A stretch of 64,000 nt of DNA from an uncultured bacterium. GTDB lineage: Bacteria; Omnitrophota; Omnitrophia; Omnitrophales; Aquincolibacteriaceae. This document shows positions 5,433 to 36,990 of the stretch, piece after piece (the stretch's first letter is position 1; each line of letters opens with the position of its first letter). The stretch is from contig CAYZYT010000012.1 in NCBI GenBank assembly GCA_964482725.1, forward strand, positions 1,310-65,309, written 5' to 3'. The notes beneath the pieces were generated by a model, which saw only the letters and a program-made list of their open reading frames with translations, was not told the origin of the DNA and searched no databases. The translations under genes were made by a program, and so were the position numbers.

Positions 5433-5453
5433 GTCATCCTACTATTTATCCGG

Positions 5454-7850
5454 TTAGTTCGGGTCGGAGCTTAACTGATTCGTATGGTCTATGGTGCCCG
5501 GGGATTCAATAAACTGGGCGGGCAGCGGATTCGCGACGCCCCACCAGTTATACTGGGCTGTTACGGAATAAGCTGTTATATTTTTCACATCATATGCGGT
5601 ATTGCCGTATATGGAATTGTGTCCGGCCGACCCCTGAGTGCCTCCGCCGAAATCCGCGTTGCTAAGCGGTTGGTTATATCCAGCCCTGCCGATTATCACG
5701 CCATAAGCATTATCTTTGATAGTGTTGTTGTAGAAAGAACCGGTGAAGGTCGATGTTGACTGCGAGCCCAATTCGATGCCTTCGTATGTTTGGTCCGATA
5801 TCACGTTATCATAAACTGTCGCATTAACCGAGCTTGAACTTTGCAAATGGAAATTCACGCCATACACGTTACCCGTAAAAGTATTTCTCGCAAGAGTTAC
5901 TGTAATAGAGTTGGTTCCGTAAGGCTTAACAGCAATTCCGGTTTCCCCGTTGTCTGTAACGACATTGTCAGCCACCAGCACGCCATTCATAGACCCTGTG
6001 CTGCCTGGATTGAAAGCCAGCTGAAGACCCCGATTAAGGTTTTGATAAACGTTATTTCCGGAAATGGTAACGCTCAAAAAAGATGAAGCGTTATTACCTG
6101 TCAGCGCTATAGCAACAGAATCATTACCGCTCACTATATTGTTTTTCATCTCGCAAGTGTTAATAATGGAGCTGTTATATCCATACGTATATATTCCGGC
6201 CCAGGCGTTGCTTTGCACGGTATTTCCCGAGATCCTGACATCCCCTTGTGAATTTGTATAAAAATCGGCTCTTATTCCTCGGCCTGAGGTTGTGGGCGGG
6301 GCAACGGGCAAGGTATTATAAGCGGGCGCGCCCGTGTTCCTATTGTTTGAAGAGGTGTTGTTGTTAATGTGAAACATCGGGGTCGCCGTGCCCTGCGCGA
6401 CAGCGAAAATCCCGGCATAGCCGGAATTATCCGTAACGATATTGTTTGAGATGGTGTAAGTACCTGTAGTAGAGCCACCGATATCAAGAAGTATGCCTTC
6501 CTGGCTGTTGCCTGATACGGTATTGTGATCTATCGTCGTATTCCGTATGTTCTGGCCGTAGATGCCTCTTAAGCCGTTCTGCACTTTAAAGCCCATGATG
6601 GTGTTATTATTGGCAAGAGTAATACCGATACCAGCAACGCTAATGACTGGATTCCCCGGAGCTGATATGCCGGCAAAGCCTCCGTTGTATCCCGACCCCC
6701 ACAGCGTAACGCTATCGGTGAGTATTATATTTTCGGCATAATTGCCGCTTCCTTTATTCACATAGACCCACTTATCTCCTGTGGCGTTAGTAACGCCGTC
6801 AGCTATCGTGATATACGGATGCTCGAGTGAACCGTCGGAGATCCCCACGTAGGAGTTATCGACAAAGGTCATATCGTGCACTTTGGTCTTCAGCGTGGGC
6901 GCGGCGGCCGTCCTTGAAGTAACATCAATATCCCTTATGACCCTATCCACCATACGTTCCCTCAAGGGCCTGAGACCTTTCTGATAACCGAAAAATTTTC
7001 CAAATTCACCGAAAAGCGCGCTCATCTTGAATACATTGACCGTTTCAAGAGGAATGGTCATAAAAGCTCCCACAAAACAGTCCGTCCCGTTGTAACCATC
7101 GTGTTTGATCTCGACTTCAAAAGTGAGCGCGCGGATCGGCCGGATCTCGATCCGCCCTTTGATGCCGTTCATGCTCTTGTTGCAGTCCGGAAAGTAGCTG
7201 TAGCCCCCGAGAAATGCCCGGGTTTCCACATATTCCGAAATGAGCGGCAGAAGCACGCCGCCCTCATAATCGAATCCCATGAGCGCCTCTTCATAGGTCG
7301 GTGTCGTCATCTTCACGAGGCTTGTGGACCCGAACACGTAGGTGGTCTCTTCCGAGATGAGCTTTTTATCGGTAAGGGGAAAATAAAAATTGGTCCTCAT
7401 GTCGAACCATTTGGAAAGACCCTCCATGCCAAACCCGAACTGGTGATTCCGGACGTCATTCTCAGTGTGCTTAGTATCATAGAAAAAGTTGCCCCCGGCG
7501 AGGAACGATTCATCAAACAAAAGCGCACGCGCTCCCACGCCGACATTCTGCTCATTGGAGTTATGGGGTCCAATCACGGTCTTCGAATCCGCGAACAACA
7601 TGCTGTTACGGGTGCCCGCCACGGGAATCAGGTTATCGAAGTAAGTCTGAAGTTTTCCGGATCCGCCCCTAACGCCCGGCATGACCTGGGCGGGCCACTC
7701 TTTCGGAGCATCAAGGAACCAAAGTTCTTTTGTTTCGGTAGAGCGTTCCACAAGAGGAGCCTGCTGGGCTTGAGCGGCCGAAAAGCCAGTAGTGGGAACC
7801 ATAAAAATCAAAGGAAGAATTGCGATTAAGAAAAAAAGCTTCCCCCTCAT
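5454..7850 (-). CDS. Outer-membrane/secreted protein with N-terminal beta-barrel-like region and C-terminal right-handed parallel beta-helix (PbH1/pectate-lyase-like) repeats; possible inverse (type Ve) autotransporter
   Basis: The ORF runs to 7952, but the likely start is the internal Met of the signal peptide MRGKLFFLIAILPLIFMVPTTGFSAAQA. The N-terminal ~330 aa have alternating beta-strand character. The C-terminal repeats (NNIVTDNSGYAGIFA, GNTVQSNAWAGIYTYG) are typical of beta-helix proteins. There is no C-terminal barrel. Confidence 0.5.
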   Translation of the reverse strand: MRGKLFFLIAILPLIFMVPTTGFSAAQAQQAPLVERSTETKELWFLDAPKEWPAQVMPGVRGGSGKLQTYFDNLIPVAGTRNSMLFADSKTVIGPHNSNEQNVGVGARALLFDESFLAGGNFFYDTKHTENDVRNHQFGFGMEGLSKWFDMRTNFYFPLTDKKLISEETTYVFGSTSLVKMTTPTYEEALMGFDYEGGVLLPLISEYVETRAFLGGYSYFPDCNKSMNGIKGRIEIRPIRALTFEVEIKHDGYNGTDCFVGAFMTIPLETVNVFKMSALFGEFGKFFGYQKGLRPLRERMVDRVIRDIDVTSRTAAAPTLKTKVHDMTFVDNSYVGISDGSLEHPYITIADGVTNATGDKWVYVNKGSGNYAENIILTDSVTLWGSGYNGGFAGISAPGNPVISVAGIGITLANNNTIMGFKVQNGLRGIYGQNIRNTTIDHNTVSGNSQEGILLDIGGSTTGTYTISNNIVTDNSGYAGIFAVAQGTATPMFHINNNTSSNNRNTGAPAYNTLPVAPPTTSGRGIRADFYTNSQGDVRISGNTVQSNAWAGIYTYGYNSSIINTCEMKNNIVSGNDSVAIALTGNNASSFLSVTISGNNVYQNLNRGLQLAFNPGSTGSMNGVLVADNVVTDNGETGIAVKPYGTNSITVTLARNTFTGNVYGVNFHLQSSSSVNATVYDNVISDQTYEGIELGSQSTSTFTGSFYNNTIKDNAYGVIIGRAGYNQPLSNADFGGGTQGSAGHNSIYGNTAYDVKNITAYSVTAQYNWWGVANPLPAQFIESPGTIDHTNQLSSDPN

Positions 7851-8131
7851 CACTGCGAAGGTAAGGCTTTTTTTTACAAGAGAGGGAGCATGCGGCACAC
7901 CTTTGACATTTTTCATAATCGGCCTTAAAGTGGACGGCATTGCGCAGATCAATTTCTTGAAGAATAAAAGCTAGAACCAGCCACAGTAGTTTCTCTTTCT
8001 TTTTCTGCTACTCTTTTTCTTTCTCTTTGTGGATTCTGTGAATTTGTGGATGGGGCAAGGCAATCTCATCTAAATTCTGCGCAGAGTTTTCTCCGTGCAT
8101 TTAAGGCTCCACCGTGCCTTGACCGTCTTGC

Positions 8132-11219: not shown

Positions 11220-11792
11220 TTAGCCGAAAAGGATCGTTTCGACAACCTCACAAATCCCGTGAAGCGCCGTCATATAGGCTTCCTGGATATGAGAAGTCTT
11301 ATTGGATTTAGCGATAAAGCAGAGATCCACGGCATCCTTCAAAATGCCCCCGTCTTTCCCGGTAAAACCGAGCGTTAGGATGCCCTGCTGTTTGGCTTGC
11401 GTGATCACATCCAGGATATTGGGAGAACGACCGCTTGTGGAAAGAACGACGAGAACATCCCCTTTTTGACCGAGCCCTTCGACCTGGCGGGAAAAGACCT
11501 TTTCAAAACCAAAGTCATTCCCGATCGCGGTAAGCGCCGCGATGTCCGCCGTAAGCGCGATGGCCGGAAGACTCCGCCGATCTTTCTCAAACCGACCGAC
11601 AAATTCGGCGGCAATATGCTGCGCGTCCGAGGCCGAGCCTCCATTCCCGCACAAAAGCAGTTTGTGTCCCGCGTTCAGGGCCTGGATGATGGCATGCGCC
11701 ATCTTGTCCAGCACTTCATACTGGGCGGGGACGAAAGTTTTCTGAAATGCTTCCTGATGTCCTTGAACAATGGTCTCGAAATTGTTTTTCAT
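11220..11792 (-). CDS. gmhA: Phosphoheptose isomerase (SIS domain)
   Basis: 190 aa with the GmhA signatures LLCGNGGSASDAQH and VLSTSGRSPN. Confidence 0.85.
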   Translation of the reverse strand: MKNNFETIVQGHQEAFQKTFVPAQYEVLDKMAHAIIQALNAGHKLLLCGNGGSASDAQHIAAEFVGRFEKDRRSLPAIALTADIAALTAIGNDFGFEKVFSRQVEGLGQKGDVLVVLSTSGRSPNILDVITQAKQQGILTLGFTGKDGGILKDAVDLCFIAKSNKTSHIQEAYMTALHGICEVVETILFG

Positions 11793-11795
11793 GGG

Positions 11796-12824
11796 TTAAC
11801 CAAAGAATATCTTGGCCAGCTCGTACATATCCGCCGGCACAGTTTTGAGTTCCCCCACCGCTTCCTGGAGTGGTACGGCCACGATATCGCGGCCACAAAG
11901 GCTGACCATGTGGCCAAACTTGCCCTCTTTGACCAGCTGAACCGCCTTCACACCGAACCGTGTCCCGAGCACACGGTCAAAAGCCGTCGGTGTACCGCCG
12001 CGCTGAATATGACCGAGCACGGTCGAACGGGTCTCGTAGCCCGTTTTCTTCTCTATGAGTTTCGCGAGACGGTCTCCCACCCCACCGAGAAGGACATGCC
12101 CGAATGCGTCGAGCTCTTTATTCGTTGTGACAAGCTCCTCCCCCTTGATCGAAAATCCTTCGGACACCGCGACCACGCTGAAGTTCTTACCGCGCGCGCG
12201 CTGTTTCGTGATATACCCGCAAACCTCATCGATCGTCAAAGAAACTTCCGGGATGAGGACGACGTCCGCACCGCCGGCGATCCCGGATTCCAGCGCGATC
12301 CAGCCGGCATGCCGGCCCATGATCTCGACCACCATCACGCGATCATGCGATTCCGCGGTTGTCCGAATACGGTCAAGACACTCGGTCGCAATATTGAGCG
12401 CCGTATCATAACCAAAGGTGTAATCCGTCGCATTGAGATCATTGTCGATCGTTTTGGGAACCCCGATGATCGGCATTCCGTCCTTGGAAAGTTTGTTCCC
12501 AGCGCCGAGGGTGTCCTCGCCCCCGATCGCGATCACGGCATCCAATTTGTTTTTTTTGATTGTCTCCCGAACTTTCTCCGCGTCACCTTCTTTTTTATAA
12601 GGGTTTGTGCGGGAAGTCCCCAGGATGGTCCCGCCACGAGGAAGGATTTCCGCAACCGACTTCTCGTCCAGTTCCACAAAATTGTTATTGATGATACCTT
12701 TCCAGCCCTGCTTGAATCCTATCACCTGCCAGCCTTCCGCTTTCGCCGTCTGCACAACGCCGCGGATCACCGCGTTAAGACCTGGGCAATCCCCGCCCCC
12801 CGTAAGCATTCCAATTCGTTTCAT
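11796..12824 (-). CDS. pfkA: 6-phosphofructokinase, probably pyrophosphate-dependent type
   Basis: MLTGGGDCPGLNAVIRGVV... The diagnostic positions read GGED (Asp at the site that is Gly-104 in E. coli) and PKTIDND (Lys at the site that is Gly-124 in E. coli). This D/K pattern is characteristic of PPi-PFK. Confidence 0.85.
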   Translation of the reverse strand: MKRIGMLTGGGDCPGLNAVIRGVVQTAKAEGWQVIGFKQGWKGIINNNFVELDEKSVAEILPRGGTILGTSRTNPYKKEGDAEKVRETIKKNKLDAVIAIGGEDTLGAGNKLSKDGMPIIGVPKTIDNDLNATDYTFGYDTALNIATECLDRIRTTAESHDRVMVVEIMGRHAGWIALESGIAGGADVVLIPEVSLTIDEVCGYITKQRARGKNFSVVAVSEGFSIKGEELVTTNKELDAFGHVLLGGVGDRLAKLIEKKTGYETRSTVLGHIQRGGTPTAFDRVLGTRFGVKAVQLVKEGKFGHMVSLCGRDIVAVPLQEAVGELKTVPADMYELAKIFFG

Positions 12825-12894
12825 CGATTGACTCCTTTAATGTTTTTGATGGGGCGCCCAACCCAAGGCCGAGGCCCACTTGAAAAAGTTCCGA

Positions 12895-13461
12895 TTAATT
12901 CCTTGAAGCTCCCGGGGCCTGAAGAACCGACCCGGCATCCTCGATCCCCCTCACGTCGCAGATCACGACAAGCGGGTTCTCAGGTCCCAGCAACCGCTTC
13001 ACCCGTTGCTGGACCTCCTGCTGCAATTCCGACAAAACCGCGGGCACATGCCCGCCCGTCCAAAGCACCAGCCGGAGCTTGATCTCGACATTTTTACCGG
13101 TGATGTTTACTTTTGCCTTCACACTTTTAACGAGCGGAAAACGCTTCACCGCTTTCACGGCCGTATTCCCTAACGTGTTGGCCGAAACCACCATCGGGCC
13201 GATCTCGCTTTGAAAAAAGATCGCTTCGTTCGGACGTCCCGCTTTCACAAGCATCTTTGTAAATGCCAGGCCGAGCACTATAAAGACAAGACCGACCACC
13301 CCGACTTGAACGGAACGCCAGGAACTTTGATAGATCTCCTGGACCTTGAGGATCGCGTCATCAAAAGCTAAAAGATGTAGCGAAACGATGATCATCAAAC
13401 TGCCCAGCGTCAGGAAGGCGAAGATAGCAAACAGCTGGGCAAAGGCGTTAGTGACCTTCAT
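12895..13461 (-). CDS. Membrane-anchored Asp23/Gls24-like (DUF322-like) protein downstream of accBC
   Basis: 188 aa with an N-terminal TM segment. Its position after accC mirrors the accB-accC-yqhY arrangement of Firmicutes. The similarity itself is weak. Confidence 0.4.
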
Positions 13462-17725: not shown

Positions 17726-20700
17726 TTACGCCGACACGGAGGTGGCTTTCTGGGTCAGCATATCCGACCACAGCTTGGTCAGGCCTTCCAGCAAGATTTC
17801 ATTAATGTCGTAGAGACCATCCCCCTTCTTTTCAAGGACATTATCCCCTACTTGCTGACGCAACAGAGCATTGGTTTGATCCACACCATTCTGCGCCACG
17901 TTTCCGGCCAAGAGGCTTCGGATCGCAGCATTTCGTTTCTGGGCCTGTTTCTGAGCCCGGAGAACGGTTCCCACAAATTGCCCCGAAAGATCCAGCCCTT
18001 CTTCAATAAGGATCGTCAAATTAGCCCGGGTAATGGCAGCATTCCCGCGCATGAGAGCTGCCGCGGCACTATTGGCGAGCGCCGATTTCGAAGACCTCAT
18101 TTTAAACTCGATCTGGACGCGCGGACCGATCTTTGCCCCCTTATGATCAAACGAATTTTGGACATTTTGAATCGCGCCCTTGAGAACCGCTTGTGCCGCC
18201 GCGTCTTGGAAAAGCGCGTCATTGGCAATGACAAAACGCTCGACCAGTTGGGTCTTCGTGCCAAGCCGCAAGCTCATATTCTTAAAATCTTCGTCGCTCG
18301 GCGCATCCGCCTTGACCGTCACCATGCCCCCGGACTTGTCAGAAACGGCCATGATGGGATTCTCCAGAATATTTTTTGCAAGACTAAGAAATTTTTGCCA
18401 GTTGAGATCACCCGCCTTCAGCGCTACAAGCGTCGTCAACATCGCCGCCACATCTTCAGCGTTAAGCATTTCGAGTTGAACCGGCACAATGATCTGCCCC
18501 AAAACATCCGCCAGAGAATCCACGCCACGTTGAAAATGCGTACTGATCAACTTCCGTCGAACCTCCGGGGTCTTACCGAGAAGAACCCAAACCTCTTCGG
18601 CCAACACTCGGCGCTGTTGCTCCACAACCGGCCGTCCTTCTGGTTTATAAATATCCACAACACCGGGGGTGAAACGACCTTCCGAGCGCGGCAACAAAGC
18701 GAGAATCTGCGGGATAATCCGGACTTCCAGGGTCGCGTAACCTGAAGCGTCCAAAGCGACATCGGATCTCTGGACCTTATAGGCATTACTTTGCAAGGCC
18801 TTGGCCACAGTATCTAGGTAATTTTTTATCGACTCCAAAGCTTGGCTTCGATCCACACCATCATTCCGGCGGAGCGCAAAGCGAACAAGAATCCCCGGGC
18901 GATTTCCTTTAGAAGGTGTGATCGATTCCAGGTCCAGCCGGCCCGCGTTAGCGATCCTCGACTCCAAATCGAAAATACCATAGACCGGCGTCAAAGGATA
19001 AGCGGCCCGCCTTTCTGTCAGAGCATTGACGACCGCGGCATCCAATTTAAACTCCTTGGCCAAGTCCCTCACCTCGGCGCGAGGCGCGGTGCTGATCTGC
19101 GGATTAAACGAATCCAGTGCCGCCTTAATCCCCTCAACGGTCGGAGAGAACGATTTGCCTCTGGCCGAGAGAGTTCTTACGTTCCGGGGATACCGGTACA
19201 CGACACCGTCCTCTGCAACAAAATCATATTGGCCTGCGGCGGGGAATTTCCGGTAGTGCGTCTTCATGGGGCCATTTAAAAACTTTTGGAGATCAAGCGC
19301 CGCATTCTGCGGATCCCTCGGATCCACACTTAAAACCAGCGCTTCTCTCTGTTTGATGACCTGTTTAACGATAATCCGTGTATTCTTTTCGGAACCCTCT
19401 TGAGTTACGCGGAACTCCCCTTTCCGCGTCTCGGAGCGAGCGGCTTCAATCCAGCGAGCAGCCTCGACAACAAATGCGGACTGAGCGTTCCAGTTTTGAC
19501 CTATCGGCACCTCGGCATTCCAGCGCACCACAGCGTCCAAAACACCTTTCAAATCATTCATTTGCCCAAAATAAAGGCTGAGCGCTCTTGCATACAAACT
19601 CGGATCTTTTTCAATCGCCTGCAAAAACTCAGGAGCTAGCAGTTCCTGACCAAGCTGCTGCGCGATCAAATCGCGCCGTTCAGGCTTCTCATGGCTAAGC
19701 AATAACTCCCGAAAAGACTGCTCGATCTCCTGGGTAATCGCCCCACGATTCGGGATGTTGCCACTCTTTGAATACCGCAGGGCTAATGAAGCTAGCTTGC
19801 TATCGGCCATCCGGCCCAACCCCCGGTTGAGCGGCGTCGCGTTATCATAAATGGAATTTTCGATTTTTCTGACAGCTTGCTCGACCGTCGCAAAGATATT
19901 CTCCCCTGGAGCGCGCGGGGCTTTCAGCATCTCAACGGCTTTTATCGCAGACTTTGCCATGACGACCCGGTCAAAGACTTTGAACTTAATGGGATGCTGC
20001 CCTTGAAGCGTCTGCACCACAAGCACCGGTCCGACCCAACTATCCGGCGCATCAGAAACCTGAATAGCAGATGTGATTTTCTCACCGTCTTTCGCAGCTA
20101 ACAATTGGACCGCATCTACCGTGCCCCGGCGAAAACCGAATAATGACTGTTCTAGCCCGGCAGGATTCATCGCAACGGCATCCACCACTTCCATCCTCCC
20201 CTCGGAGCGAGCGGTTAATTCAAACACGACCTGGATATCCCCCAACAAAATATTTTTTTCTGATTCCTGGGCATTGGTCCATCCGTCCACTCCCCGACTC
20301 AAAACCCTGACCTTCGCGGTCCCGTTCATATTTTCAGAGGAAATATCGCTTTCAAGAACAATGTAGACCTTGCCATGGTCGGGATGATCGGAACGATTGT
20401 GGAAAACGACCTGACCGGGATTGATACGCCACCCGGCCTGGGGCTGCACATTCACAAACCCGCGGGACTGCAACTCCGGGACCAAGTTTTGTTCCACCGT
20501 ATTTCCTGCCAGCGTGGACAAAAGGGCTTCCTTGATCCGAGCCAATCGCGCAGCATCCAACCTCGTCTCGGAGCGAGAGACAAACACTTGCCGGCCTCCG
20601 CCTCCATCTGTGACCTTGGCTTTTCCGGTCGCTATCAAGCGATACATGTCGACCACCGACATTATTTGATTCTTGTCAAAAAGTGAAACTGTTGTAGTCC

Positions 20701-23700
20701 CTGCTATTTCCTGGCTCTGTAAATACTGCAGCGCCGGGACTGCGACTGGATCATTTACCGAATAATCAACAACATTAGCGCCATTGCGCCGATCCGGTTT
20801 TGCAGATATCAGGCCCGCACGAATGCCTTCCTTAGCAATCTCGACCGACAAGCCCACATTCTCCGTTTCACTGATCTCAACACTCACCGCTGTATCAGGA
20901 GAATTCTTTGACCTAAGCTTCTTTTGAGCCAGATCAGTTCGCACAAAATCCGGGATATCCATGTCCGCGGGCAGGAAAAAATAAAATCCATCATTACCTA
21001 TCTGGCGGTAGCCAATCGTAGGATTGCGATCACGAAGGTCCGTATCCAGGGCGCTGGCTTTTAATCTCTGAGGTTGCGTCTTCGGCTTCTCAGAAATGGC
21101 GAGGAGAGAATAATCGCTACCATTGGGTATGCCAAAAACATCATAAAATTTCGGAGCAGCGTATTCTCGTCCAAGTGCTGACTCCGTGGTGATATCTCCC
21201 CCTCTCGCCTTTTGAGCCGCCTTGATAAGCTCTTCTTTGGGACCCGTCAACCTCACCTCGGAGCGGCCAAGCTCAGCCTGGATCTGGGCGCGGCGTTCAT
21301 TCACATTCGTGAGCACATCCTGAGGCGCTGCCGGATTGTCGACCAACCACCGGTCGATCTCGGCAAGAGACGCCGCCAATTGAGCATTTGCCAAAACAGG
21401 AGCGAGTGCGCCATTTGCTGCTCGGCCCGCCTTCTCAAAACTCATATCCCGGTCGTCTGTCAGTTTAAGCCCGGGGCGACCGAGCACGTCTCTTAGCCAG
21501 GCATTCTGCTTAACCAAAGCCTTGATCTCCTTAACCAAAGCCATGATCTGTAACTTCAAGTAGCCCAGGTGCAAAAGACTTCCCACTCTCGTATCACCAA
21601 GGCGCGCGATCTGTGCGTTCCTCTGCGCGGCCGGCACGAACACCAACCAATGAAAGATGGAGGAAACTGCCGTGAATGCGAAAAGGCCGATGGAAAAAGA
21701 CAGGAGCTTTTGATATCCGACAAAGCTCATTCCGAACGAGCCTTGCCCGACACCGCCAACATACGGAAGAACCTGATCCGTTGTCATTGTTCCCGTCCAG
21801 GCAAATGCAACAAGCCCTGCGGAAATCCCCGTCGCCCATAACAGCCCTTCCATGATCTTCTCGCTCACCGCCCTCGCCTCGGCGCGAGGGATAGAACCGG
21901 ATATGACGGCATATAATCCGCCTGTTTGATCGGCGGTATTGAATGCACGCTCTCGGTCAACGCCTCCCTTTTTGGAGCTGGCTATGATTTCGTCAGCTCT
22001 TGGAAGCCTCCTCACCAGATCCAAAACCATGCCGCGGTCGGCTTCAGAGAGCATAAAATTGGCCGCGAGGGCGTCCTGAAAAACGTCACCTTCATAAACC
22101 GGCAGTTTTGAAGCGACATAGCCAACGTCTTTGAATGGCGCCCGCAGCAACTCTTCTGTCTGACGGAACAATTCTGCAAGATATCCGGCGTACTGAGCGA
22201 CAAAGACCGGATCATTCCATTTTTCCTCCGGAAGCATCCGGAGAAGCTGTTCGGTGGGTTCCTGCAACATCGGCATGCGATCAAACCACGCTGGCAGCCC
22301 CGCAGCCCCCTGTCCCCTCGCCTCGGAGCGGGGAACAAAGACATCATTCGGAGTCCATTTTTTGGGCCCAACCCAGGCATCAAATAATTTCTGAAGGTCA
22401 CTAACCTCTTTTCTGGGCGCAGGTTGGGTTGCTTCGATCCGATCAGCTAATGACCTGAGTCCCGCTATAATTTTGGTGCGTTCACCCTCCGCGACGGCAG
22501 CCGTTTGGATCTTTTTAAGTACCGTCCCCAGGTCCTGAAGACCGGTAACCAGCTGAAATCTTGTTTTATCGACTTCCCCTGACTTCGTCAGGAGCCCAGC
22601 TTTAGCTAGTAAGAGCACCCCACCAAGCATCTCTGCTTTAGTTGCCGAAGCCCCGCCGAAATTCATGATAGAAGCCGAAACCGCTCCTTGCCTGAGCGCC
22701 ATGCCACGCAAAACCTCTACCAACTCAGGCGCAGTGAAAGACAAATCGGCGAATTTCTGATCTCCCCGCGAGTGGACTTCTTCAGCTTGATTCTCCAACA
22801 TAAAGCTATACAGTCCGATCGCGACGGCTCCCCCCCTCGACTCGGCGCGGGCGGGCGTTGCGGTTAATCCGGGGAACTGCCCAATCGACAAAAGGTATTG
22901 GTTAAACGCCAGCATTACGCTAATAGCCTTTTCTGATCCAGCCGGCGCCGGACGCAACTCGGCATTTTGCCCAAACATAGGACTTACAGCTGTCGCTAAT
23001 TTCAATAGTTCAGCCTGGATATCCACTTCGTCTGTGTTCAGGCCTTTAACATACTCAATAGCGGCGAGCCACATCGGACGCTGGGACGGAATTCGCATCC
23101 CCGATTCACGCCGTTCTCCGGGTTGATCCGCCAGCCTCTGGAAGTGCGCTACAAGATCTGCGGCTTTAACCCTTACCTCGGAGCGGGCTGGAGATGCGGT
23201 GGATCCTGGAAATTGGCCGATCGAAAAAAGGTATTGGTTAAACGCCAGCATTACGCTAATAGCCTTTTCTGATCCAGCCGGCGCCGGACGCAACTCGGCA
23301 TTTTGCCCAAACATAGGACTTACAGCTGTCGCTAATTTCAATAGTTCAGCCTGGATATCCACTTCGTCTGTGTTCAGGCCTTTAACATACTCAATAGCGG
23401 CGAGCCACATCGGACGCTGGGACGGAATTCGCATCCCCGATTCACGCCGTTCTCCGGGTTGATCCGCCAGCCTCTGGAAGTGCGCTACAAGATCTGCGGC
23501 TTTAACCCTTATCTCGGCGCGGGCCACGGAAACTTCTGGCTTCCCAACATTGAGCAAGATCGTCTTAATGGGCGAAAAGGGGTCCGGCAGACGCGTCCCT
23601 GCGGAAGTTCTCGCGAAATCATAGGCAGGCAACCGCGTGTTCAGGGACTGTAGCACTTCAACCAACTTCTCATCCGGCATACTAGACATTTCTTTTAAGA

Positions 23701-26700
23701 GCGTACCCGCCGCGGATCTTACCCTTTCATCAAGTTCCAGTTGATTAGAAACACCCTCCAACGCCATCCGAATGATTTCTCGATCCCTCTCGGTCAATCT
23801 CACTTCGGCGCGGGCCACGGAAACTTCTGGCTTCCCAACATTGAGCAAGATCGTCTTAATGGGCGAAAAGGGGTCCGGCAGACGCGTCCCTGCGGAAGTT
23901 CTCGCGAAATCATAGGCAGGCAACCGCGTGTTCAGGGACTGTAGCACTTCAACCAACTTCTCATCCGGCATACTAGACATTTCTTTTAAGAGCGTACCCG
24001 CCGCGGATCTTACCCTTTCATCAAGTTCCAGTTGATTAGAAACACCCTCCAACGCCATCCGAATGATTTCTCGATCCCTCTCGGTCAATCTCACTTCGGC
24101 GCGGGCTTGTATAAATTGTTTTTCCGTGGCGCGGGCCCGTATAAATTCCTCTTCCGTGATTTCCCAGCCAGCCGGGATCTCTCTCGAATTAAAATCGACT
24201 GTCTTATTCGTGGCATTAAAAGGGATGCGCGCATATTGTCTCTCCCACACACCGTCAGCCCCAAGAACCTGATGCATCACAAAAATAGCGTCCTTTGAAA
24301 CAAAGCGCTCAAGAAGATTGGTAACATCCACGAATCCTTGATCTTTAAAGTGGACCGTAAAAACAGGGTTCGTCACCGTAGGCTCAACGATCTCGATATT
24401 GGCCGGCACCCCAGTCGCCGCAAGCGCCCCTGTAGCTTCCGGTACGGCGCTCGGAGCAACTTTAAGGCCCACGTCCATCACATCATTGGTTGTATACGCG
24501 TCGCGAAGATTCATCGCAAAGAATCCAGCCGCAGCAGCGTTTGTCAGCGGAAAAGATCTGTACCCGAAGTAGTTCGTACCGGGTTCAAACACGCCCTCGA
24601 TACCGGTCCCTTCGTTGTTCCAGCCAGTAAGCAAATTGGTACTGGAAATATAATCCGCAACCGCGTAAACCGGATTTGTTCCCGGGACCACGATGATAGG
24701 GGTCAAAACCATTTGCGCAGGCATGTTCGTCGTCGCCGGGACGAATTCCGGCTGGATCGAAATCTCCACTAAATTGGCGGAGAACGCCACACTCCCCATG
24801 ATCGAAAAGGCTACCGCCGTTGTCGCCAACTTCCCGGCCTTCGCCTTGCCTGGCTTGCGAATGGGTCTGATTAAATCTCCCGCATAGGGAAGAACCGCAG
24901 GGACAGAAGCCGGCGACATGGAGTATTTCCCGAACTGTGGCGCGGGCTCTTTCGGACGGAGATCACGCTCATTTTCCAAAATGGGTGCCAGAGCTTTCTG
25001 TGCCGCAATACCCGTAGTACCAAAGATCGTCCCGGATTCGACAAGAACGCCGCCCGGCAAAGCCATCTTTTCCGAGACCGTCGCAGCAACGGTCCCGTTG
25101 ATGGTCACGGATTGGGCCTCCGGCGAACTCGAACGGACCTTATAACTATCCTTGACGGGCTTTCCTTGAGCGTCCACTTCTTGAATGAGGGTGATGCCTT
25201 TTTTAACGGCGAGTTCCGACTGATTAAAAATCTCAACAACACCTGCAATGTTCTTATCCCCAACCCTGCTCATCGCTCCAAGAATCACAGCATATACTTC
25301 TTCGGGCCGGATACCCTGGGCTGCCAGAACGCCATCGCTCATAAGCTTTGACGCCATTTCAAGGTACGAGATCGAAAAAAGGTGCTCCCGATCCTGGAGC
25401 ATGGCGACACGGTATAAATTCTCATCGGACTTTTCGGAAAGACGCGGGGTGACGATGCCGTAGCTAATGGCGTTCTCCCTGAAAAGATCGCTCATGCCGT
25501 CGGTGTGGAAACCGCCGGTGATCAGAATGGCTTTGGTGATCTTCTTCTCTGCCATCTGGGACTGCATCTCTTTATAGAAGACGGCTTCACGCTTGTGAGC
25601 AAAATCATAGAACTCGAGGCCGGCAGTGAAAAGCTCATCCATCTTGGCGGCGAACTTAGGGGGCATCACATCACTAACAGACTGGCGACTAGAGACTGGA
25701 GACTGGAGGCTGGAAACCTTTTGACTTTGGTCTCTGGTCTCTGGTCTCTGGTCTGTGGTCCGTACGGCGCTTACCAGCCGTGCAGCAAGACTCGGAATCG
25801 CAACCTGGTCTTTATTCGAAAGCAGCTGCTGCCACTGTGTGCGATTGAGCTCAAGATGAAGAAGTTTACGCAAAAGCTCACCATCCCTATAAAGGGCGAG
25901 GAGTGCCTTCTGCTGAGGCTCCTGCGCTAAGGTATCGAGCATCTGCGTAAAAAGATATTCGATCTCCTCAAAAAGGACCTTGGGGTCCAGTTCCGATCGG
26001 AGAGTCACATAACCAGCAAAAAGACTGAACGCGGGATAATCGCTGAATTTAAAACCTTTGGGGCCGGCTTCCTGGGCCAGGCGTTCCAGCACTTCGCGCG
26101 GCGAAACTTCCGTAGCCGACTTCCCTACGGCAATACTTCCTTCATTGAAATTTTCAAGTGTCGCGAGAAGTTCTTTGGAAACTCCCTGGGTGCGAAGCAC
26201 CTTGATAAGCTTGGCCTGCTCTTCCTGCCCCTTCGTTTTATTCATATCTTTTTCCAGCTGCTGGATGACGAGAAGGCGTGAGATCTGCGGCCAGCCAACC
26301 TGAGCAAAAAGACTTTCAAGGTCAACGTTCAGGATCTTCTTGGATTTCACGGTAAGACTTTTGACGAAGGGCATGAAATCGCGGCGGCCCTGCTCGAAAC
26401 GCTTCCAGTCGGCGATCAGTTCCCGGGTCTCGGGTGAAAATGTTTGAGAAGCAACCTTGTCGAGTTTTCCGTCGAATCCTTTAAAGAAGTGCGACACATC
26501 GGCTTCAGCACCGAACACTTTTTTCAGAGCGTCATAGTTGGCCTTATATAAGGAAGCTTCTTCAATACCAAGAGCCTCGATATTCTTGTCAGCCTCCATC
26601 ATGTAGAGTTCGGCGCCGGTAAGCTCACCCTGCTTGGCAAGCTCATCACACAGCTTGAGATTGCGTTCCTGGTCCGGGAAGAGACGCAGGTAATCCGCGT

Positions 26701-27028
26701 CCAGTTTCTCAGAGGCTCCTTCGACGAAGATGGTCTTGAAACCATACTTCTTATTCATATGACCCAAAAGCTGCTTGATCTTCATCTGGGCCTGGTAATT
26801 GGCATGGGCATTCTGGATATGAAGAATGAATTGCGTATTAGCTCCGGCGGGCGCTTCATAGAGCGCATCCACAGTACCGAGTTCCGGAGGAATATCAATG
26901 CTCAGATAGGAAGGAAGCTCGCGCTGGCCGGCCATTTCGATTCCGGCGCCTGGGGCGGCTGAGACGCATTGCGTCGTCAGAAAGCAAAATAAGGTGCCCG
27001 TCGCAACCACCTTAAGCATGTTTTTCAC
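17726..27028 (-). CDS. Giant (3100 aa) secreted, membrane-spanning modular protein with a TraB/GumN/Tiki-like N-terminal domain and about 14 modules delimited by a recurring [AP]R[AS]E[VI]R motif
   Basis: Uninterrupted 9.3-kb ORF. Signal peptide MKNMLKVVATGTLFCFLTTQCVSA. The N-terminal domain carries FILHIQNAH...TIFVEGA and the GumN-like C-terminal motif ILITGGFHTDGMSDLFRENAISYGIV. A central hydrophobic block (GLLWATGISAGLVAFAW...FVPAAQ) predicts TM helices. Two in-frame tandem repeats are present, of 112 aa and 97 aa. Confidence 0.85.
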   Translation of the reverse strand: MKNMLKVVATGTLFCFLTTQCVSAAPGAGIEMAGQRELPSYLSIDIPPELGTVDALYEAPAGANTQFILHIQNAHANYQAQMKIKQLLGHMNKKYGFKTIFVEGASEKLDADYLRLFPDQERNLKLCDELAKQGELTGAELYMMEADKNIEALGIEEASLYKANYDALKKVFGAEADVSHFFKGFDGKLDKVASQTFSPETRELIADWKRFEQGRRDFMPFVKSLTVKSKKILNVDLESLFAQVGWPQISRLLVIQQLEKDMNKTKGQEEQAKLIKVLRTQGVSKELLATLENFNEGSIAVGKSATEVSPREVLERLAQEAGPKGFKFSDYPAFSLFAGYVTLRSELDPKVLFEEIEYLFTQMLDTLAQEPQQKALLALYRDGELLRKLLHLELNRTQWQQLLSNKDQVAIPSLAARLVSAVRTTDQRPETRDQSQKVSSLQSPVSSRQSVSDVMPPKFAAKMDELFTAGLEFYDFAHKREAVFYKEMQSQMAEKKITKAILITGGFHTDGMSDLFRENAISYGIVTPRLSEKSDENLYRVAMLQDREHLFSISYLEMASKLMSDGVLAAQGIRPEEVYAVILGAMSRVGDKNIAGVVEIFNQSELAVKKGITLIQEVDAQGKPVKDSYKVRSSSPEAQSVTINGTVAATVSEKMALPGGVLVESGTIFGTTGIAAQKALAPILENERDLRPKEPAPQFGKYSMSPASVPAVLPYAGDLIRPIRKPGKAKAGKLATTAVAFSIMGSVAFSANLVEISIQPEFVPATTNMPAQMVLTPIIVVPGTNPVYAVADYISSTNLLTGWNNEGTGIEGVFEPGTNYFGYRSFPLTNAAAAGFFAMNLRDAYTTNDVMDVGLKVAPSAVPEATGALAATGVPANIEIVEPTVTNPVFTVHFKDQGFVDVTNLLERFVSKDAIFVMHQVLGADGVWERQYARIPFNATNKTVDFNSREIPAGWEITEEEFIRARATEKQFIQARAEVRLTERDREIIRMALEGVSNQLELDERVRSAAGTLLKEMSSMPDEKLVEVLQSLNTRLPAYDFARTSAGTRLPDPFSPIKTILLNVGKPEVSVARAEVRLTERDREIIRMALEGVSNQLELDERVRSAAGTLLKEMSSMPDEKLVEVLQSLNTRLPAYDFARTSAGTRLPDPFSPIKTILLNVGKPEVSVARAEIRVKAADLVAHFQRLADQPGERRESGMRIPSQRPMWLAAIEYVKGLNTDEVDIQAELLKLATAVSPMFGQNAELRPAPAGSEKAISVMLAFNQYLFSIGQFPGSTASPARSEVRVKAADLVAHFQRLADQPGERRESGMRIPSQRPMWLAAIEYVKGLNTDEVDIQAELLKLATAVSPMFGQNAELRPAPAGSEKAISVMLAFNQYLLSIGQFPGLTATPARAESRGGAVAIGLYSFMLENQAEEVHSRGDQKFADLSFTAPELVEVLRGMALRQGAVSASIMNFGGASATKAEMLGGVLLLAKAGLLTKSGEVDKTRFQLVTGLQDLGTVLKKIQTAAVAEGERTKIIAGLRSLADRIEATQPAPRKEVSDLQKLFDAWVGPKKWTPNDVFVPRSEARGQGAAGLPAWFDRMPMLQEPTEQLLRMLPEEKWNDPVFVAQYAGYLAELFRQTEELLRAPFKDVGYVASKLPVYEGDVFQDALAANFMLSEADRGMVLDLVRRLPRADEIIASSKKGGVDRERAFNTADQTGGLYAVISGSIPRAEARAVSEKIMEGLLWATGISAGLVAFAWTGTMTTDQVLPYVGGVGQGSFGMSFVGYQKLLSFSIGLFAFTAVSSIFHWLVFVPAAQRNAQIARLGDTRVGSLLHLGYLKLQIMALVKEIKALVKQNAWLRDVLGRPGLKLTDDRDMSFEKAGRAANGALAPVLANAQLAASLAEIDRWLVDNPAAPQDVLTNVNERRAQIQAELGRSEVRLTGPKEELIKAAQKARGGDITTESALGREYAAPKFYDVFGIPNGSDYSLLAISEKPKTQPQRLKASALDTDLRDRNPTIGYRQIGNDGFYFFLPADMDIPDFVRTDLAQKKLRSKNSPDTAVSVEISETENVGLSVEIAKEGIRAGLISAKPDRRNGANVVDYSVNDPVAVPALQYLQSQEIAGTTTVSLFDKNQIMSVVDMYRLIATGKAKVTDGGGGRQVFVSRSETRLDAARLARIKEALLSTLAGNTVEQNLVPELQSRGFVNVQPQAGWRINPGQVVFHNRSDHPDHGKVYIVLESDISSENMNGTAKVRVLSRGVDGWTNAQESEKNILLGDIQVVFELTARSEGRMEVVDAVAMNPAGLEQSLFGFRRGTVDAVQLLAAKDGEKITSAIQVSDAPDSWVGPVLVVQTLQGQHPIKFKVFDRVVMAKSAIKAVEMLKAPRAPGENIFATVEQAVRKIENSIYDNATPLNRGLGRMADSKLASLALRYSKSGNIPNRGAITQEIEQSFRELLLSHEKPERRDLIAQQLGQELLAPEFLQAIEKDPSLYARALSLYFGQMNDLKGVLDAVVRWNAEVPIGQNWNAQSAFVVEAARWIEAARSETRKGEFRVTQEGSEKNTRIIVKQVIKQREALVLSVDPRDPQNAALDLQKFLNGPMKTHYRKFPAAGQYDFVAEDGVVYRYPRNVRTLSARGKSFSPTVEGIKAALDSFNPQISTAPRAEVRDLAKEFKLDAAVVNALTERRAAYPLTPVYGIFDLESRIANAGRLDLESITPSKGNRPGILVRFALRRNDGVDRSQALESIKNYLDTVAKALQSNAYKVQRSDVALDASGYATLEVRIIPQILALLPRSEGRFTPGVVDIYKPEGRPVVEQQRRVLAEEVWVLLGKTPEVRRKLISTHFQRGVDSLADVLGQIIVPVQLEMLNAEDVAAMLTTLVALKAGDLNWQKFLSLAKNILENPIMAVSDKSGGMVTVKADAPSDEDFKNMSLRLGTKTQLVERFVIANDALFQDAAAQAVLKGAIQNVQNSFDHKGAKIGPRVQIEFKMRSSKSALANSAAAALMRGNAAITRANLTILIEEGLDLSGQFVGTVLRAQKQAQKRNAAIRSLLAGNVAQNGVDQTNALLRQQVGDNVLEKKGDGLYDINEILLEGLTKLWSDMLTQKATSVSA
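22890..23526 (-). repeat. Intragenic tandem duplication, 336-bp unit x2, near-identical at the DNA level
   Basis: About 300 bp at 22890-23190 are repeated at 23226-23526, with short divergent junctions. The unit encodes the 112-aa unit AEIRVKAADLVAHFQRLADQPGERRES...GQFPGSTASPAR. Confidence 0.85.
23509..24099 (-). repeat. Intragenic tandem duplication, 291-bp unit x2, near-identical at the DNA level
   Basis: Anchor cggaaacttctggcttcccaac occurs at 23527 and 23818 (period 291 bp). The unit encodes AEVRLTERDREIIRMALEGVSNQLELDE...NVGKPEVSVAR (97 aa). The plus-strand small ORFs at 23459/23741 are duplicated artefacts of this repeat. Confidence 0.85.
25690..25752 (-). repeat. Heptanucleotide microsatellites inside the giant ORF: (AGACTGG)x3 and (GGTCTCT)x4
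   Basis: gagactggagactggaggctgg ... ggtctctggtctctggtctctggtctgtgg. The 7-nt unit is not a multiple of 3. The tracts encode the low-complexity stretch RPETRDQSQKVSSLQSPVSSRQS. Confidence 0.7.
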
Positions 27029-27207: not shown

Positions 27208-27945
27208 TTAAACCTGTCGATTTTCCTGAAATTCAATGCCAAAACCAAGCTGTTCCTTCCGGATCTCCTTGCGGCGGACCTTCCCCGCAACATGATATTC
27301 CTCCGGAAAATTAGCGCTTGGGAATATATGGATCTCCACAGGAAGATTCTCTATAGGCTCAATGGCAATAATCTTCGCCGCCGTTTCAAGATTCAAATAT
27401 TCGACAAAGATCCCCCCCTGGCTGATATTCGTGACGATAGCTTTCGTGATGACTATCTCATTATCAGCGCTCGTGATCCGAAGCTCCACGGGGATAGCAA
27501 CATGCATACGATGGTTTCTCCGGCCATCCAGTTGAAAACCGAGTGACTCCTTGGGGGTTTTTGCCCCCGGATCCAAATACCGCTTATCGGGATCCTTATC
27601 ATAGAGAAACGGCCCAAAACTCTCTGCCACCTCTTTCTCATCCGCACAGATATCCACCTTTCCTGAGAAGCAATTATCCTCGAGAAAATTGGCCATATCG
27701 GGTGAGGCTCCGTAGAGCGCACTGTGTTTGGGTCGAATACAAACGGTCAGGAGCCGCCTAAGCCCTATAGTGTCCAAGGGGCCCGCCGCCTTAAAATTCA
27801 GAATGATCTGGTGAAAGTGGTGACGCCGGATACTCTTCTGGATCTTCCAGGCCACTTCCTGCACCGACTCAAAGGTCGGCTCACCCTTAAGGTCGAAAAC
27901 AGCAACCCCTCCGATCTCTCGTGTCGAATAATGAAATTTGCTCAT
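27208..27945 (-). CDS. STAS-domain (anti-sigma-antagonist-like) plus PilZ-domain fusion protein; predicted c-di-GMP effector
   Basis: N-terminal STAS pattern (IGGVAVFDLKGEP...IILNFKAAGPLDTIGLRRLL). C-terminal PilZ motifs RRNHR and NISQGGIFV. Confidence 0.65.
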   Translation of the reverse strand: MSKFHYSTREIGGVAVFDLKGEPTFESVQEVAWKIQKSIRRHHFHQIILNFKAAGPLDTIGLRRLLTVCIRPKHSALYGASPDMANFLEDNCFSGKVDICADEKEVAESFGPFLYDKDPDKRYLDPGAKTPKESLGFQLDGRRNHRMHVAIPVELRITSADNEIVITKAIVTNISQGGIFVEYLNLETAAKIIAIEPIENLPVEIHIFPSANFPEEYHVAGKVRRKEIRKEQLGFGIEFQENRQV

Positions 27946-36859: not shown

Positions 36860-36990
36860 GCGGAGAACCCCCGACCCTCTCCGTGTAAAGGACCTGCCTC
36901 GGGCAGGTAACCCACTGTCCGCCTTCGGCTCTGCCGAAGGACGGATCCGTCCTCGTCCACAGACGAGGCGGAAGCTAATCGCCCGCAAAG
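36860..36990 (-). pseudogene. Degenerate tRNA-Val copy interrupted by an ~80-nt hairpin-rich insertion
   Basis: The tRNA-Val segments gaacccccgaccctctccgtgtaaagga and gaagctaatcgcccgcaaa are present, but the D-arm/anticodon 5' half is replaced by cctgcctcgggcagg...gtcctcgtccacagacgaggc (three hairpins) and the 3' acceptor has diverged. Confidence 0.5.

Follow-up and report, generated by a model that had tools for sequence, protein, structure and literature searches.

Viral polyproteins, such as those of picornaviruses, potyviruses and flaviviruses, yield many unrelated mature proteins from one ORF, with a short and strict recognition motif between the units, unconserved flanks around this motif and a hydrolase domain in the chain. 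In flaviviruses, internal signal peptides also send some of the products to membranes. All these features have a counterpart in the giant gene analysed in this work. The differences are that the Omnitrophota family to which this gene belongs is made of cellular chromosomal genes with thousands of members, that its cargo is exchangeable and varies between orthologous loci, that its candidate enzyme has a TIKI/Ere fold instead of a chymotrypsin- or papain-like one, and that its cleavage is something we infer from sequence.

Among bacterial proteins, MARTX toxins are also giant and have conserved ends around variable shuffled modules, and the fold of the N-terminal domain (N-domain) described below is also that of RRSP, one of their effectors. 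Cuts at short linker sites set the MARTX modules free, and a similar release is proposed for the Omnitrophota protein. The MARTX sites are Leu-based, whereas the Omnitrophota motif is a strict pentapeptide. Furthermore, the Omnitrophota protein differs in having a Sec signal for export and modules that, in its family, comprise housekeeping-type enzymes among others and have Sec/Tat signals of their own; no glycine-rich RTX repeats, C80 cysteine-protease domain or type I secretion were detected when the protein and its neighbours were scanned with Pfam. Long precursors cut at recurring short sites, either after Arg/Lys or after the Phe of S/T-x-F-x-D/E, are known from Porphyromonas (gingipain/HagA) and from Mycoplasma hyopneumoniae (P97/P102 adhesins). 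These bacterial precursors likewise give rise to several functional pieces, but the pieces are a few related adhesin or protease domains processed extracellularly, with neither exchangeable enzyme cargo nor internal Tat/Sec signals.

Giant genes have already been reported in the same phylum ('Archaeovorin', dockerin-type and multi-enzyme forms; West-Roberts et al., 2023, preprint; 2026 complete-genome preprint). [quoted passage not shown] Both preprints take up the question of whether such an ORF works as one protein or in pieces. The first of them suspected post-translational cleavage and stated that the cleavage points were unknown, and the second describes 'metabolic clusters' with up to 147 TM helices and mentions neither cleavage nor motifs. 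The pentapeptide, its clade variants, the TIKI-fold N-domain and the conserved C-terminal domain (C-domain) were not found when the text of the two preprints was searched for them.

The giant ORF is located on the minus strand of the window (the whole stretch of 64,000 nucleotides that was analysed), at positions 17726-27028 with the stop codon at 17726-17728. It starts with GTG and encodes 3100 aa, exactly as originally predicted; in its database copy, P0001, the start is the ATG at 27019, 3 codons downstream of the GTG. The proposed signal peptide was also recognizable in the sequence. It is of Sec type (aa 1-24; 26957-27028, minus strand; MKNMLKVVATGTLFCFLTTQCVSA/AP, the slash marking the predicted cut) and consists, by eye, of the N-terminus MKNMLK, a hydrophobic core of 13-16 residues and VSA/AP. 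A leader of about 25 aa stands ahead of the N-domain in nearly all relatives. Searching the whole protein against Pfam and NCBIfam gave no match at E<=1. The family formed by its relatives is large, unannotated and almost entirely composed of Candidatus Omnitrophota members, with about 5,300 clusters at E<=1e-10. Throughout it, an exported N-domain and a C-terminal alpha/beta domain are conserved, and the cargo between them changes fast and differs completely between orthologous loci.

Structure prediction from an alignment of 33 sequences gave the N-domain (aa 25-570; 25319-26956, minus strand) an alpha/beta core of the TIKI/erythromycin-esterase/TraB fold with a large helical insertion, and this core has the parallel beta-sheet common to the solved members of the superfamily. 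The invariant residues are His75 (26804-26806), Glu103 (26720-26722), Arg480, Gly505-Gly506 and His508 (25505-25507), of which His75, Glu103 and His508, the last one within a GGFH motif, do not vary across 72 sequences. The invariant His-Glu pair, 28 residues apart, and the second His, in a GxxH-type motif, may correspond to the catalytic set of TIKI, TraB-PrgY, erythromycin esterase and ChaN, and the same spacing separates the His and Glu of Bcr135 (H85/E113) and RRSP (H3902/E3930) (PMC6254334). In addition, a signal peptide followed by an ectodomain is also found in TIKI and PrgY. The N-domain departs from the superfamily in its helical insertion of about 300 residues, in the first acidic position of the '2His/2Glu' set (Asn73 in the giant protein and Asp in distant relatives), in its fusion to a cargo array and a conserved C-domain, and in lacking any sequence-level match to Pfam TraB/GumN or to a PDB chain. 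Neither TraB/GumN, erythromycin-esterase nor related HMMs of Pfam and NCBIfam matched it at E<=1, sequence and profile searches of the PDB gave no match, and Foldseek against the PDB gave nothing significant, the helical insert dominating the matches. The TraB/GumN/Tiki-like domain of the original prediction is supported at the level of the predicted fold core, and not at that of HMMs or of PDB sequences and profiles.

At the other end, the last motif, RSEGR (18674-18688), is followed by a conserved alpha/beta (Rossmann-like) C-domain (aa 2786-3100), both of them covering 17729-18688 on the minus strand, and the protein ends in -SA. In at least 80 of the 224 family members this domain makes up the very end of the chain, and some of these are forms of about 1000 aa in which the N- and C-domains stand together with no cargo. 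The C-domain was considered as a protease and rejected because it has no conserved catalytic triad.

The pentapeptide R[AS]ExR appears 13 times in the giant ORF, always within aa 976-2785 and with a spacing of 97-257 aa, against a mean of 0.16 (maximum 3) in 2000 residue shuffles. These values are close to the approximately 14 copies at intervals of 100-250 aa noted at first, and far above what composition would produce by chance. The associated DNA pattern, CTCGG(A/C)GCG(G/A)G, was likewise recovered, with 9 matches, all in the giant gene, versus 0.38 expected. The pentapeptide was not found in the approximately 17,000 other ORF residues of the window, and was at background level in unrelated ORFs of 78 related loci. 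In 106 relatives, 981 copies were counted versus 21.6 expected. The median distance between motifs was 217 aa. Neither Lys in place of Arg nor Asp in place of Glu is tolerated (686 vs 13.6). The flanks of the motif showed no conservation in relatives and, for this reason, we read it as a short linear recognition site and not as an element of a fold. It marks module boundaries, in line with one half of the original alternative of domain boundary or processing site; between a repeated processing site and the start of a repeated domain, the former is favoured and the latter disfavoured, because the flanks are unconserved and the modules are mutually unrelated.

Other clades of the family use alternative motifs, namely [AG]xSLG (87 vs 3.4 expected) and [GA][STA]RL[SA] (25 vs 0.5 expected), also in the form G[ST]RL[SA], and RPExR, RSDxR and KSEGR are minor variants. 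The motif classes are mutually exclusive and track N-domain similarity, the nearest neighbours belonging to the same class in 26/36, 6/9 and 309/321 cases. About 50 of 224 relatives have no clear recurring motif, and a search for new motifs among the remotest of them (Endomicrobia, Chlamydiae and 'Eisenbacteria') gave nothing convincing. Motif-rich ORFs devoid of an N-domain and placed beside family genes were discarded as continuations of these genes across frameshifts or scaffold gaps. The one exception left is P0118, an apparently complete ORF that has 12 motifs but lacks an N-domain.

Between the N-domain and the first motif there is a non-conserved segment (aa 571-975; 24104-25318, minus strand), which holds a hydrophobic stretch resembling a signal peptide (aa 738-756; 24761-24817), preceded by Lys/Arg and with no motif ahead. 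From there, 12 cargo modules follow one another on the minus strand, each of them, as well as the C-domain, preceded by the pentapeptide. Module 1 (aa 976-1072, 97 aa; 23813-24103) begins with RAEVR at 24089-24103, and module 2 (aa 1073-1169; 23522-23812; RAEVR at 23798-23812) is a 100% identical tandem copy of it. Module 3 (aa 1170-1281, 112 aa; 23186-23521; RAEIR at 23507-23521) is in turn followed by a 95% tandem copy, module 4 (aa 1282-1393; 22850-23185; RSEVR at 23171-23185). Then come module 5 (aa 1394-1566, 173 aa; 22331-22849; RAESR at 22835-22849), module 6 (aa 1567-1714, 148 aa; 21887-22330; RSEAR at 22316-22330) and module 7 (aa 1715-1921, 207 aa; 21266-21886; RAEAR at 21872-21886). 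The last of these looks like a small membrane-protein module, with hydrophobic helices (aa 1725-1743 and about 1767-1793) that begin 5 residues past RAEAR; together with aa 738-756, they are the hydrophobic segments of the giant protein, and no other of its modules starts in a hydrophobic manner. The array is completed by module 8 (aa 1922-2151, 230 aa; 20576-21265; RSEVR at 21251-21265), module 9 (aa 2152-2273, 122 aa; 20210-20575; RSETR at 20561-20575), module 10 (aa 2274-2530, 257 aa; 19439-20209; RSEGR at 20195-20209), module 11 (aa 2531-2649, 119 aa; 19082-19438; RSETR at 19424-19438) and module 12 (aa 2650-2780, 131 aa; 18689-19081; RAEVR at 19067-19081).

Only the products of two recent tandem duplications (291 bp in two copies at 100%, 336 bp in two copies at 95%) aligned with each other among the modules. 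The original prediction had taken a failure of the modules to align, and also the lack of a TraB/GumN match, as evidence that would speak against it; both outcomes did occur, but the tests had been wrongly framed and the finding is not weakened by them. Among 5.8 billion proteins, no homologue of the cargo centre of 1810 aa was found except for module 1, which has one in P0118 (aa 1731-1828), the homology stopping exactly at the motifs on both sides. Similarly, P0038 and P0047 have in common shuffled modules of 64-87 aa, each beginning at the motif. The cargo of the relatives includes CMP kinase, HPr, hexokinase, phosphofructokinase, phosphoglucomutase and receiver domains, and 12 of the 12 Pfam domains checked were wholly inside one module (for instance, REC at 2222-2342 in module 2213-2350 and HPr at 1103-1182 in module 1086-1218). 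As in polyproteins, a recurring short site lies between autonomous units.

Signal peptides of several types were identified 0-20 aa past the motifs in relatives, as would be expected of separate polypeptides, the calls being made by eye and with simple hydropathy or regular-expression rules. Those of Sec type are exemplified by RSEVR-GKTAAFLLAIGLALANAVA/D in P0011 and the homologous RPESR-KTAAAFVLISLLSVWHAIA/D in L018, and those of Tat type by RSEAR-VLT-RRGFLK in P0005, RSEIR-N-RRGFL in P0065 and, in a protein of the SLG class, P0078, ASSLG-NSEESFS-RREFL. In P0022, a Tat signal is combined with a lipobox, ending in LTGC. Strict Tat-like signals were located no more than 30 aa past a motif in 5 of 9 cases, versus 9% under the null, and hydrophobic segments were found just after motifs in 11.8% versus just before them in 2.6%. 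To our knowledge, Tat and lipoprotein signal peptides function only near a free N-terminus. With cytoplasmic-type enzymes and internal Sec/Tat signal peptides in the relatives, the earlier description of a secreted/membrane protein turned out to be too simple.

The interpretation that we favour, at a probability of roughly 55%, is that the ORF encodes a polyprotein, the chain being cut at each motif before export, so that an operon would be written as one ORF. The motif between modules is probably the cutting site. According to this proposal, the frame would be formed by the exported N-terminal hydrolase domain of TIKI/Ere fold and the C-terminal alpha/beta domain, with 12 unrelated cargo modules inserted between them in this gene, and a site-specific endopeptidase would cut at or beside every pentapeptide in the cytoplasm. 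The freed modules would then act as ordinary proteins, some of them remaining cytoplasmic and others using the Sec, Tat or lipoprotein signal peptide right after their motif. We infer both the cleavage itself and its compartment.

As regards the enzyme, the N-domain, in cis or in trans, is the main candidate protease, being the sole universally associated hydrolase. TIKI/TraB/ChaN proteins are mostly extracytoplasmic. The N-domain may be in the wrong compartment, as the signal peptides of the modules imply cytoplasmic cutting, and since its own signal peptide predicts export, a different cytoplasmic protease is about equally likely. If P0118 is not a truncation product, cutting cannot depend on an N-domain in cis. 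In addition, L018 and L019, two different paralogues of the sole informative genome found, both use RPExR, which may likewise point to a factor that serves the whole genome in trans. A co-conserved neighbouring protease, which the original prediction proposed to look for, or a secretion gene was detected neither in the window nor around P0077 and P0078.

Several alternatives to a cleaved polyprotein were weighed. First of all, the ORF could produce an uncleaved giant multidomain membrane protein, in which the pentapeptide would link the units, dock a chaperone, a translocon component or a scaffold partner, or be modified at Arg/Ser. DeepTMHMM applied to whole Omnitrophota giants in the 2026 preprint returned single chains with SP+TM or TM only, and the N- and C-domains around the cargo could operate as one machine. 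However, this explanation is unlikely, given the Tat and lipoprotein signal peptides right behind motifs and a cargo that is unrelated, exchangeable and often composed of complete soluble enzymes. The first hydrophobic segment past the N-domain has, moreover, a Lys/Arg-rich N-terminal flank in 69 proteins versus 20, and the flank charges so predicted contradict a single-chain topology with an exported N-domain. Besides, a docking motif would need neither to be placed exclusively between domains nor to switch class with the N-domain clade.

A secreted multi-effector toxin similar to MARTX, the whole chain of which would be exported and its linkers cut by the N-domain outside the cytoplasm or in the prey or host, must also be taken into account. 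[quoted passage not shown] Nevertheless, once the chain had been exported, its internal signals of Sec, Tat and lipoprotein type would serve no purpose, the cargo of the relatives includes housekeeping-type enzymes, and neither the RTX repeats and C80 domain nor nearby type I secretion genes were detected. All these data make the toxin decidedly unlikely.

The motif might also be the translation of an element acting at the nucleic-acid level, either a recombination site or microhomology for in-frame cassettes or an RNA signal. Its codon bias does exceed the amino-acid requirement, both in the window, where 13/13 motifs have CGC at Arg1 and 9/13 have AGG at Arg5 (backgrounds of 23% and 12%, respectively), and in the 78 related loci, with CGY at Arg1 in 80% and TCN at Ser in 93% (backgrounds of 43% and 66%, respectively); the breakpoints of module duplication and exchange also fall at motifs. 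However, a recombinase site would require more than the 7-8 nucleotides that are semi-fixed here, and the Ser bias is explained by the interchange of Ser and Ala (TCN to GCN and back). Across relatives, Arg5 uses all six Arg codons, GAA is about as frequent as GAG at Glu and position 4 is free, whereas amino-acid identity is constrained, with no Lys for Arg and no Asp for Glu; the alternative motif classes are peptide-level as well. Such an element is consequently very improbable. The possibility that translation also starts inside the ORF, or that GAGGTGAGG contains a ribosome-binding site, was rejected too, as GAA is about as frequent as GAG and no Met/Val/Leu enrichment is seen past the motif, and the Shine-Dalgarno-like GAGG is lost wherever Glu is GAA. 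Ribosome skipping of the 2A type was considered unlikely, there being no conserved upstream context.

Finally, the original prediction had compared the protein with the adhesin LapA. LapG makes a single cut in its substrate, at a di-alanine site in the N-terminal part. Despite the size of the protein, its signal peptide and a STAS-PilZ gene that does lie directly upstream, as stated (27208-27945, minus strand), and keeps this position in 11 closely related loci, a giant adhesin released under c-di-GMP control through the PilZ protein and a LapG-type protease is hardly credible: adhesin/RTX repeats, a single LapG site, LapG, LapD and a type I secretion signal or genes were absent from the protein and neighbours scanned, the PilZ gene is a neighbour only within one sub-clade, in its syntenic pheST-mgsA surroundings, and is missing from this place in other family members, and the cargo of the relatives consists of enzymes and not of adhesin repeats.

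Cutting of a polyprotein at the motifs would explain the use of the puzzling giant genes of Omnitrophota, and a strict, clade-specific motif between modules, together with the signal peptides, provides a concrete and testable cleavage map. The giant-gene puzzle may be resolved in this way, with many proteins instead of one. A broader proposal, which we advance tentatively and with odds somewhat short of even, is that polyproteins are a general mode of expression in Omnitrophota, in which tens to hundreds of ordinary proteins per chain, among them cytoplasmic enzymes, substrates of Sec and Tat, lipoproteins and membrane proteins, would be freed by a dedicated cytoplasmic endopeptidase of lineage-diversified specificity (R-S-E-x-R, A-x-S-L-G or G-x-R-L-A), while cassettes would enter, leave and change places at the sites of cutting. 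Were this true, a residue-level cleavage map would be available for the unexplained ORFs of 10,000 to 147,000 aa in the phylum. Should cleavage be confirmed, polyprotein expression in the manner of viruses would be known for the first time from a large family of cellular proteins, one with thousands of members, and it would bring a new pair of sequence-specific protease and site, with variants of different specificity and a possible use as a tool. The annotation of such genes would then have to be made per module and not per ORF.

The giant ORF of the original prediction is real: it belongs to a Candidatus Omnitrophota genome and encodes a protein of 3100 aa (17726..27028, minus strand), for which Pfam and NCBIfam searches gave no match. 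It was said to contain about 14 copies of a recurrent motif. The recurrence was corroborated and the count was corrected to 13 R[AS]ExR motifs, all within aa 976-2785 and separated by 97-257 aa; residue shuffles averaged 0.16 and never exceeded 3. Elsewhere in the 64-kb window R[AS]ExR is absent from the ORFs, which together comprise about 17,000 residues, and the DNA form that had been proposed, CTCGGMGCGRG, gave 9 exact matches, every one inside the giant gene, against 0.38 expected. Twelve of the motifs open the 12 cargo modules located between the N-domain (aa 25-570) and the C-domain (aa 2786-3100), and the last precedes the C-domain. Modules 1 and 2 are a recent tandem duplication (two copies of 291 bp, 100% identity), as are modules 3 and 4 (two copies of 336 bp, 95% identity). 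Both duplications are adjoining and in-frame (22841-24106), with the copy boundaries at motif codons, and the other modules showed no mutual relationship.

A word-indexed search identified 117 relatives of 1800-5400 aa, whose named source organisms are almost always Omnitrophota. Exhaustive searching by phmmer, starting from the N-domain, gave 7318 clusters at E<=1e-3 and 5291 at E<=1e-10 (counted at 50% identity), with lengths from about 250 to 7500 aa among the 150 matches listed. In addition, at least 415 matches were confirmed in the GTDB representative genomes; the best 78 of these loci are all from Omnitrophota, and several genomes have multiple paralogues. Only the N-domain and the C-domain of the query are conserved. 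The former is always N-terminal in the relatives, preceded by a leader of about 25 aa, and an iterative search showed that at least 80 of the 224 relatives end with the latter; in long forms it usually starts directly at a motif. Many short forms of about 1000 aa (P0131-P0165) consist of signal peptide, N-domain and C-domain, with neither cargo nor motif, and may be the ancestral state of the family. Since both domains are conserved at the termini, also in these motif-free forms, the giant proteins look like a frame of N-domain and C-domain into which cargo has been inserted. In a search of 5.8 billion proteins, the only part of the query cargo region (1810 aa) with a homologue was module 1 (97 aa), which shares 62-65% identity with aa 1731-1828 of the protein P0118, the similarity ending exactly at the flanking motifs. 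The closest relatives occupy the same gene neighbourhood (pheS-pheT, mgsA and STAS-PilZ upstream) and have N-domains 68-81% identical to that of the query and entirely different cargo. The C-terminal residue is Ala in 174 of 224 family proteins and 165 of them end in -AA or -SA, as do the query (...TSVSA, 17729-17734) and P0118, which lacks the N-domain (...AKAA); this ending might serve in C-terminal recognition or as a degron.

The motif proved to be more general than the original prediction had realised. The 106 relatives of the RSExR class, that of the query, contain 981 motifs versus 21.6 expected, formed by R, S (78%) or A (22%), E, one of V/A/M/S/L/T/I, and R. Lys-for-Arg and Asp-for-Glu variants stayed at background level, and the exact motif was observed 686 times versus 13.6 expected. 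It is always downstream of the N-domain, with a median inter-motif distance of 217 aa, and occurs only at background frequency in the unrelated ORFs of the 78 loci. Motif-rich ORFs beside family genes proved to be continuations across frameshifts or scaffold gaps. The flanks of the motif are essentially unconserved on both sides, a hallmark of short linear recognition sites as opposed to repeated folds.

Recognition at the nucleic acid level was also considered, since codon usage within the motif is skewed more than its residues call for. The query motifs have CGC for the first Arg in 13/13 cases and AGG for the last in 9/13; in the related loci L001-L078 the first Arg is CGY in 80% (background 43%), with AGR almost excluded, and Ser is TCN in 93% (background 66%). 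Every synonymous codon nevertheless occurs in the relatives, GAA being about as frequent as GAG, and position 4 is free, so selection acts chiefly at the peptide level. The preference for TCN at Ser is attributable to Ser/Ala toggling (TCN<->GCN), and that of the first Arg may reflect motif descent by duplication or microhomology-mediated exchange.

Other clades have different motifs: [AG]-x-S-L-G (SLG class) in 12 proteins (87 observed, 3.4 expected) and [GA]-[STA]-R-L-[SA] (RL class) in three (25 observed, 0.5 expected) plus a fourth, P0100, with 3 copies. Minor variants are RPExR (P0028, which is locus L019, and P0037), RSDxR (P0014 and P0128) and KSEGR (P0159). No protein combines two of the three major classes, and nearest-neighbour N-domains had the same class in 26/36 (SLG), 6/9 (RL) and 309/321 (RSExR) comparisons. 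Motif class thus shows co-variation with N-domain lineage, which would be compatible with a cis-linked or a lineage-specific trans reader. The paralogues L018 and L019 from one MAG (CAYQTU01) have different N-domain subtypes and RPExR in both; L018 has RPESR where its orthologues have RSEVR, ahead of a homologous signal peptide. This single genome suggests that the motif variant may be set per genome.

The modules behave as autonomous units. In seven relatives 12 Pfam domains were checked, and each was wholly inside one module, such as a methyltransferase (988-1155 in module 942-1173), a receiver domain (2222-2342 in 2213-2350) and HPr (1103-1182 in 1086-1218), besides GT2, cupin, HTH_8, HATPase and others. 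Mini-module families of 64-87 aa are common to P0038 and P0047, where they are repeated in different order and each begins at a motif. The most telling evidence for autonomy is that many modules start with a predicted signal peptide directly after the motif, as judged by simple rules. Sec-type examples are RSEVR-GKTAAFLLAIGLALANAVA/D (P0011) and RSEVR-TPFARITKAIFFAAVMFMLMLPASVRA/Q (P0004). Tat-type examples are RSEAR-VLT-RRGFLKVMGAAGLVAAAA (P0005), RSEIR-N-RRGFLGQ (P0065), RRDFLK 18 aa downstream of a motif (P0021), RRDFV...LTGC with a lipobox (P0022) and, in the SLG class, ASSLG-NSEESFS-RREFLALIGVAAAFAFAG (P0078). Of nine strict Tat-like signals, five are no more than 30 aa after a motif, versus 9% in the positional null, and hydrophobic 15-mers follow 11.8% of motifs and precede 2.6%. 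In the query, module 7 (aa 1715-1921) opens with RAEAR and has hydrophobic helices from aa 1725. The hydrophobic segment nearest downstream of the N-domain has an N-terminal flank richer in Lys/Arg in 69 proteins and poorer in 20; the former is the signal-peptide orientation and misfits a single chain whose N-domain is already exported. Internal signal peptides make sense only if the modules separate before membrane targeting, so cutting would occur in the cytoplasm.

Unconserved flanks, autonomous modules and post-motif signal peptides all point to polyprotein proteolysis at the motif before export as the best-supported mechanism, with a probability of roughly 0.55, and thus favour the repeated processing site that had been one of the options proposed. 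The accompanying analogy with LapG cleavage of the adhesin LapA failed in every defining feature tested.

The protease could be either the N-domain or another enzyme. An AlphaFold2 model of the N-domain (33 sequences; pLDDT 84, pTM 0.80) has an alpha/beta core (strands 27-49, 75-78, 127-130 and 475-504, model residues) with a large helical insertion. Its comparison gave Bcr135 (2rad, 9.8), HopBA1 (5t09, 9.5), a TraB-family protein (8bqs_DQ, 9.4), EreC (6xcq, 9.0), ChaN (2g5g, 8.7), an Ere-like 'succinoglycan biosynthesis protein' (2qgm, 8.7) and the MARTX effector RRSP (5w6l, 8.1); Foldseek gave nothing significant. The modelled fold groups this domain with TIKI, TraB, Ere and ChaN. The TraB/GumN/Tiki-like N-terminus originally claimed therefore holds for the predicted fold and lacks a Pfam or NCBIfam match; PDB sequence and profile searches gave no sequence-level support either. 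His75, Gln81, Glu103, Arg480, Gly505, Gly506, His508 and Pro528 are invariant in 72 aligned N-domains, and the first acidic position of the '2His/2Glu' set is Asn73 in the query. The 28-residue spacing of His75 and Glu103 equals that of H85/E113 in Bcr135 and H3902/E3930 in RRSP, which are catalytic pairs (PMC6254334). As this superfamily includes the sequence-specific endopeptidases TIKI and RRSP (PMC6254334), the N-domain is a credible candidate processing enzyme. It has its own Sec-type leader and should therefore leave the cytoplasm. P0118 (L081, 263-9226) is a complete ORF of 2987 aa with 12 RSExR motifs, no N-domain or C-domain and one cargo module common with the query, with a stop codon in frame ahead of it and an intrinsic terminator behind; either it is a family member that was truncated, or it speaks for motif reading in trans. 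Two 7-bp tandem arrays (AGACTGG x5.1 and TGGTCTC x4.7, 25679-25760) map to an N-domain loop (about aa 423-450) that is of low complexity, was modelled with low confidence and varies in length among relatives.

The PilZ gene placed directly upstream is present and encodes a STAS-PilZ two-domain protein (27208-27945, minus strand). The order pheS-pheT, mgsA, STAS-PilZ and giant gene is kept in at least 11 close Omnitrophota loci and was not kept around the more distant family members examined. The window ORFs that were scanned yielded neither a protease nor a secretion system. Two adjoining large surface-protein genes (2493-5438 and 5457-7970, minus strand) have, one, a classical autotransporter beta-domain and, the other, an inverse-autotransporter beta-domain with right-handed beta-helix/NosD repeats. 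A 567-aa ORF on the strand opposite to almost all genes (11379-13079, plus strand) had no Pfam match. The rest of the window (listed at 36978-38063 and 40077-41702, minus strand) contains housekeeping or envelope-related genes; the window gene content includes LOG/lysine-decarboxylase-like, AsmA/YhdP-like, thrS, pheS/pheT, accB/accC, aroQ, CCA-adding/poly(A) polymerase and class-II glutamine amidotransferase genes.

No relevant publication came up in literature searches on an Omnitrophota polyprotein, on a bacterial polyprotein or on a TIKI link. As to organism, the Omnitrophota giant genes come closest. A 2026 preprint reports multi-enzyme giants in which TM helices number up to 147, leaves their interpretation open and says nothing of cleavage or motifs. 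The closest functional analogues of the family are viral polyproteins and MARTX toxins, and its motif punctuates the modular proteins of what is a very large family.
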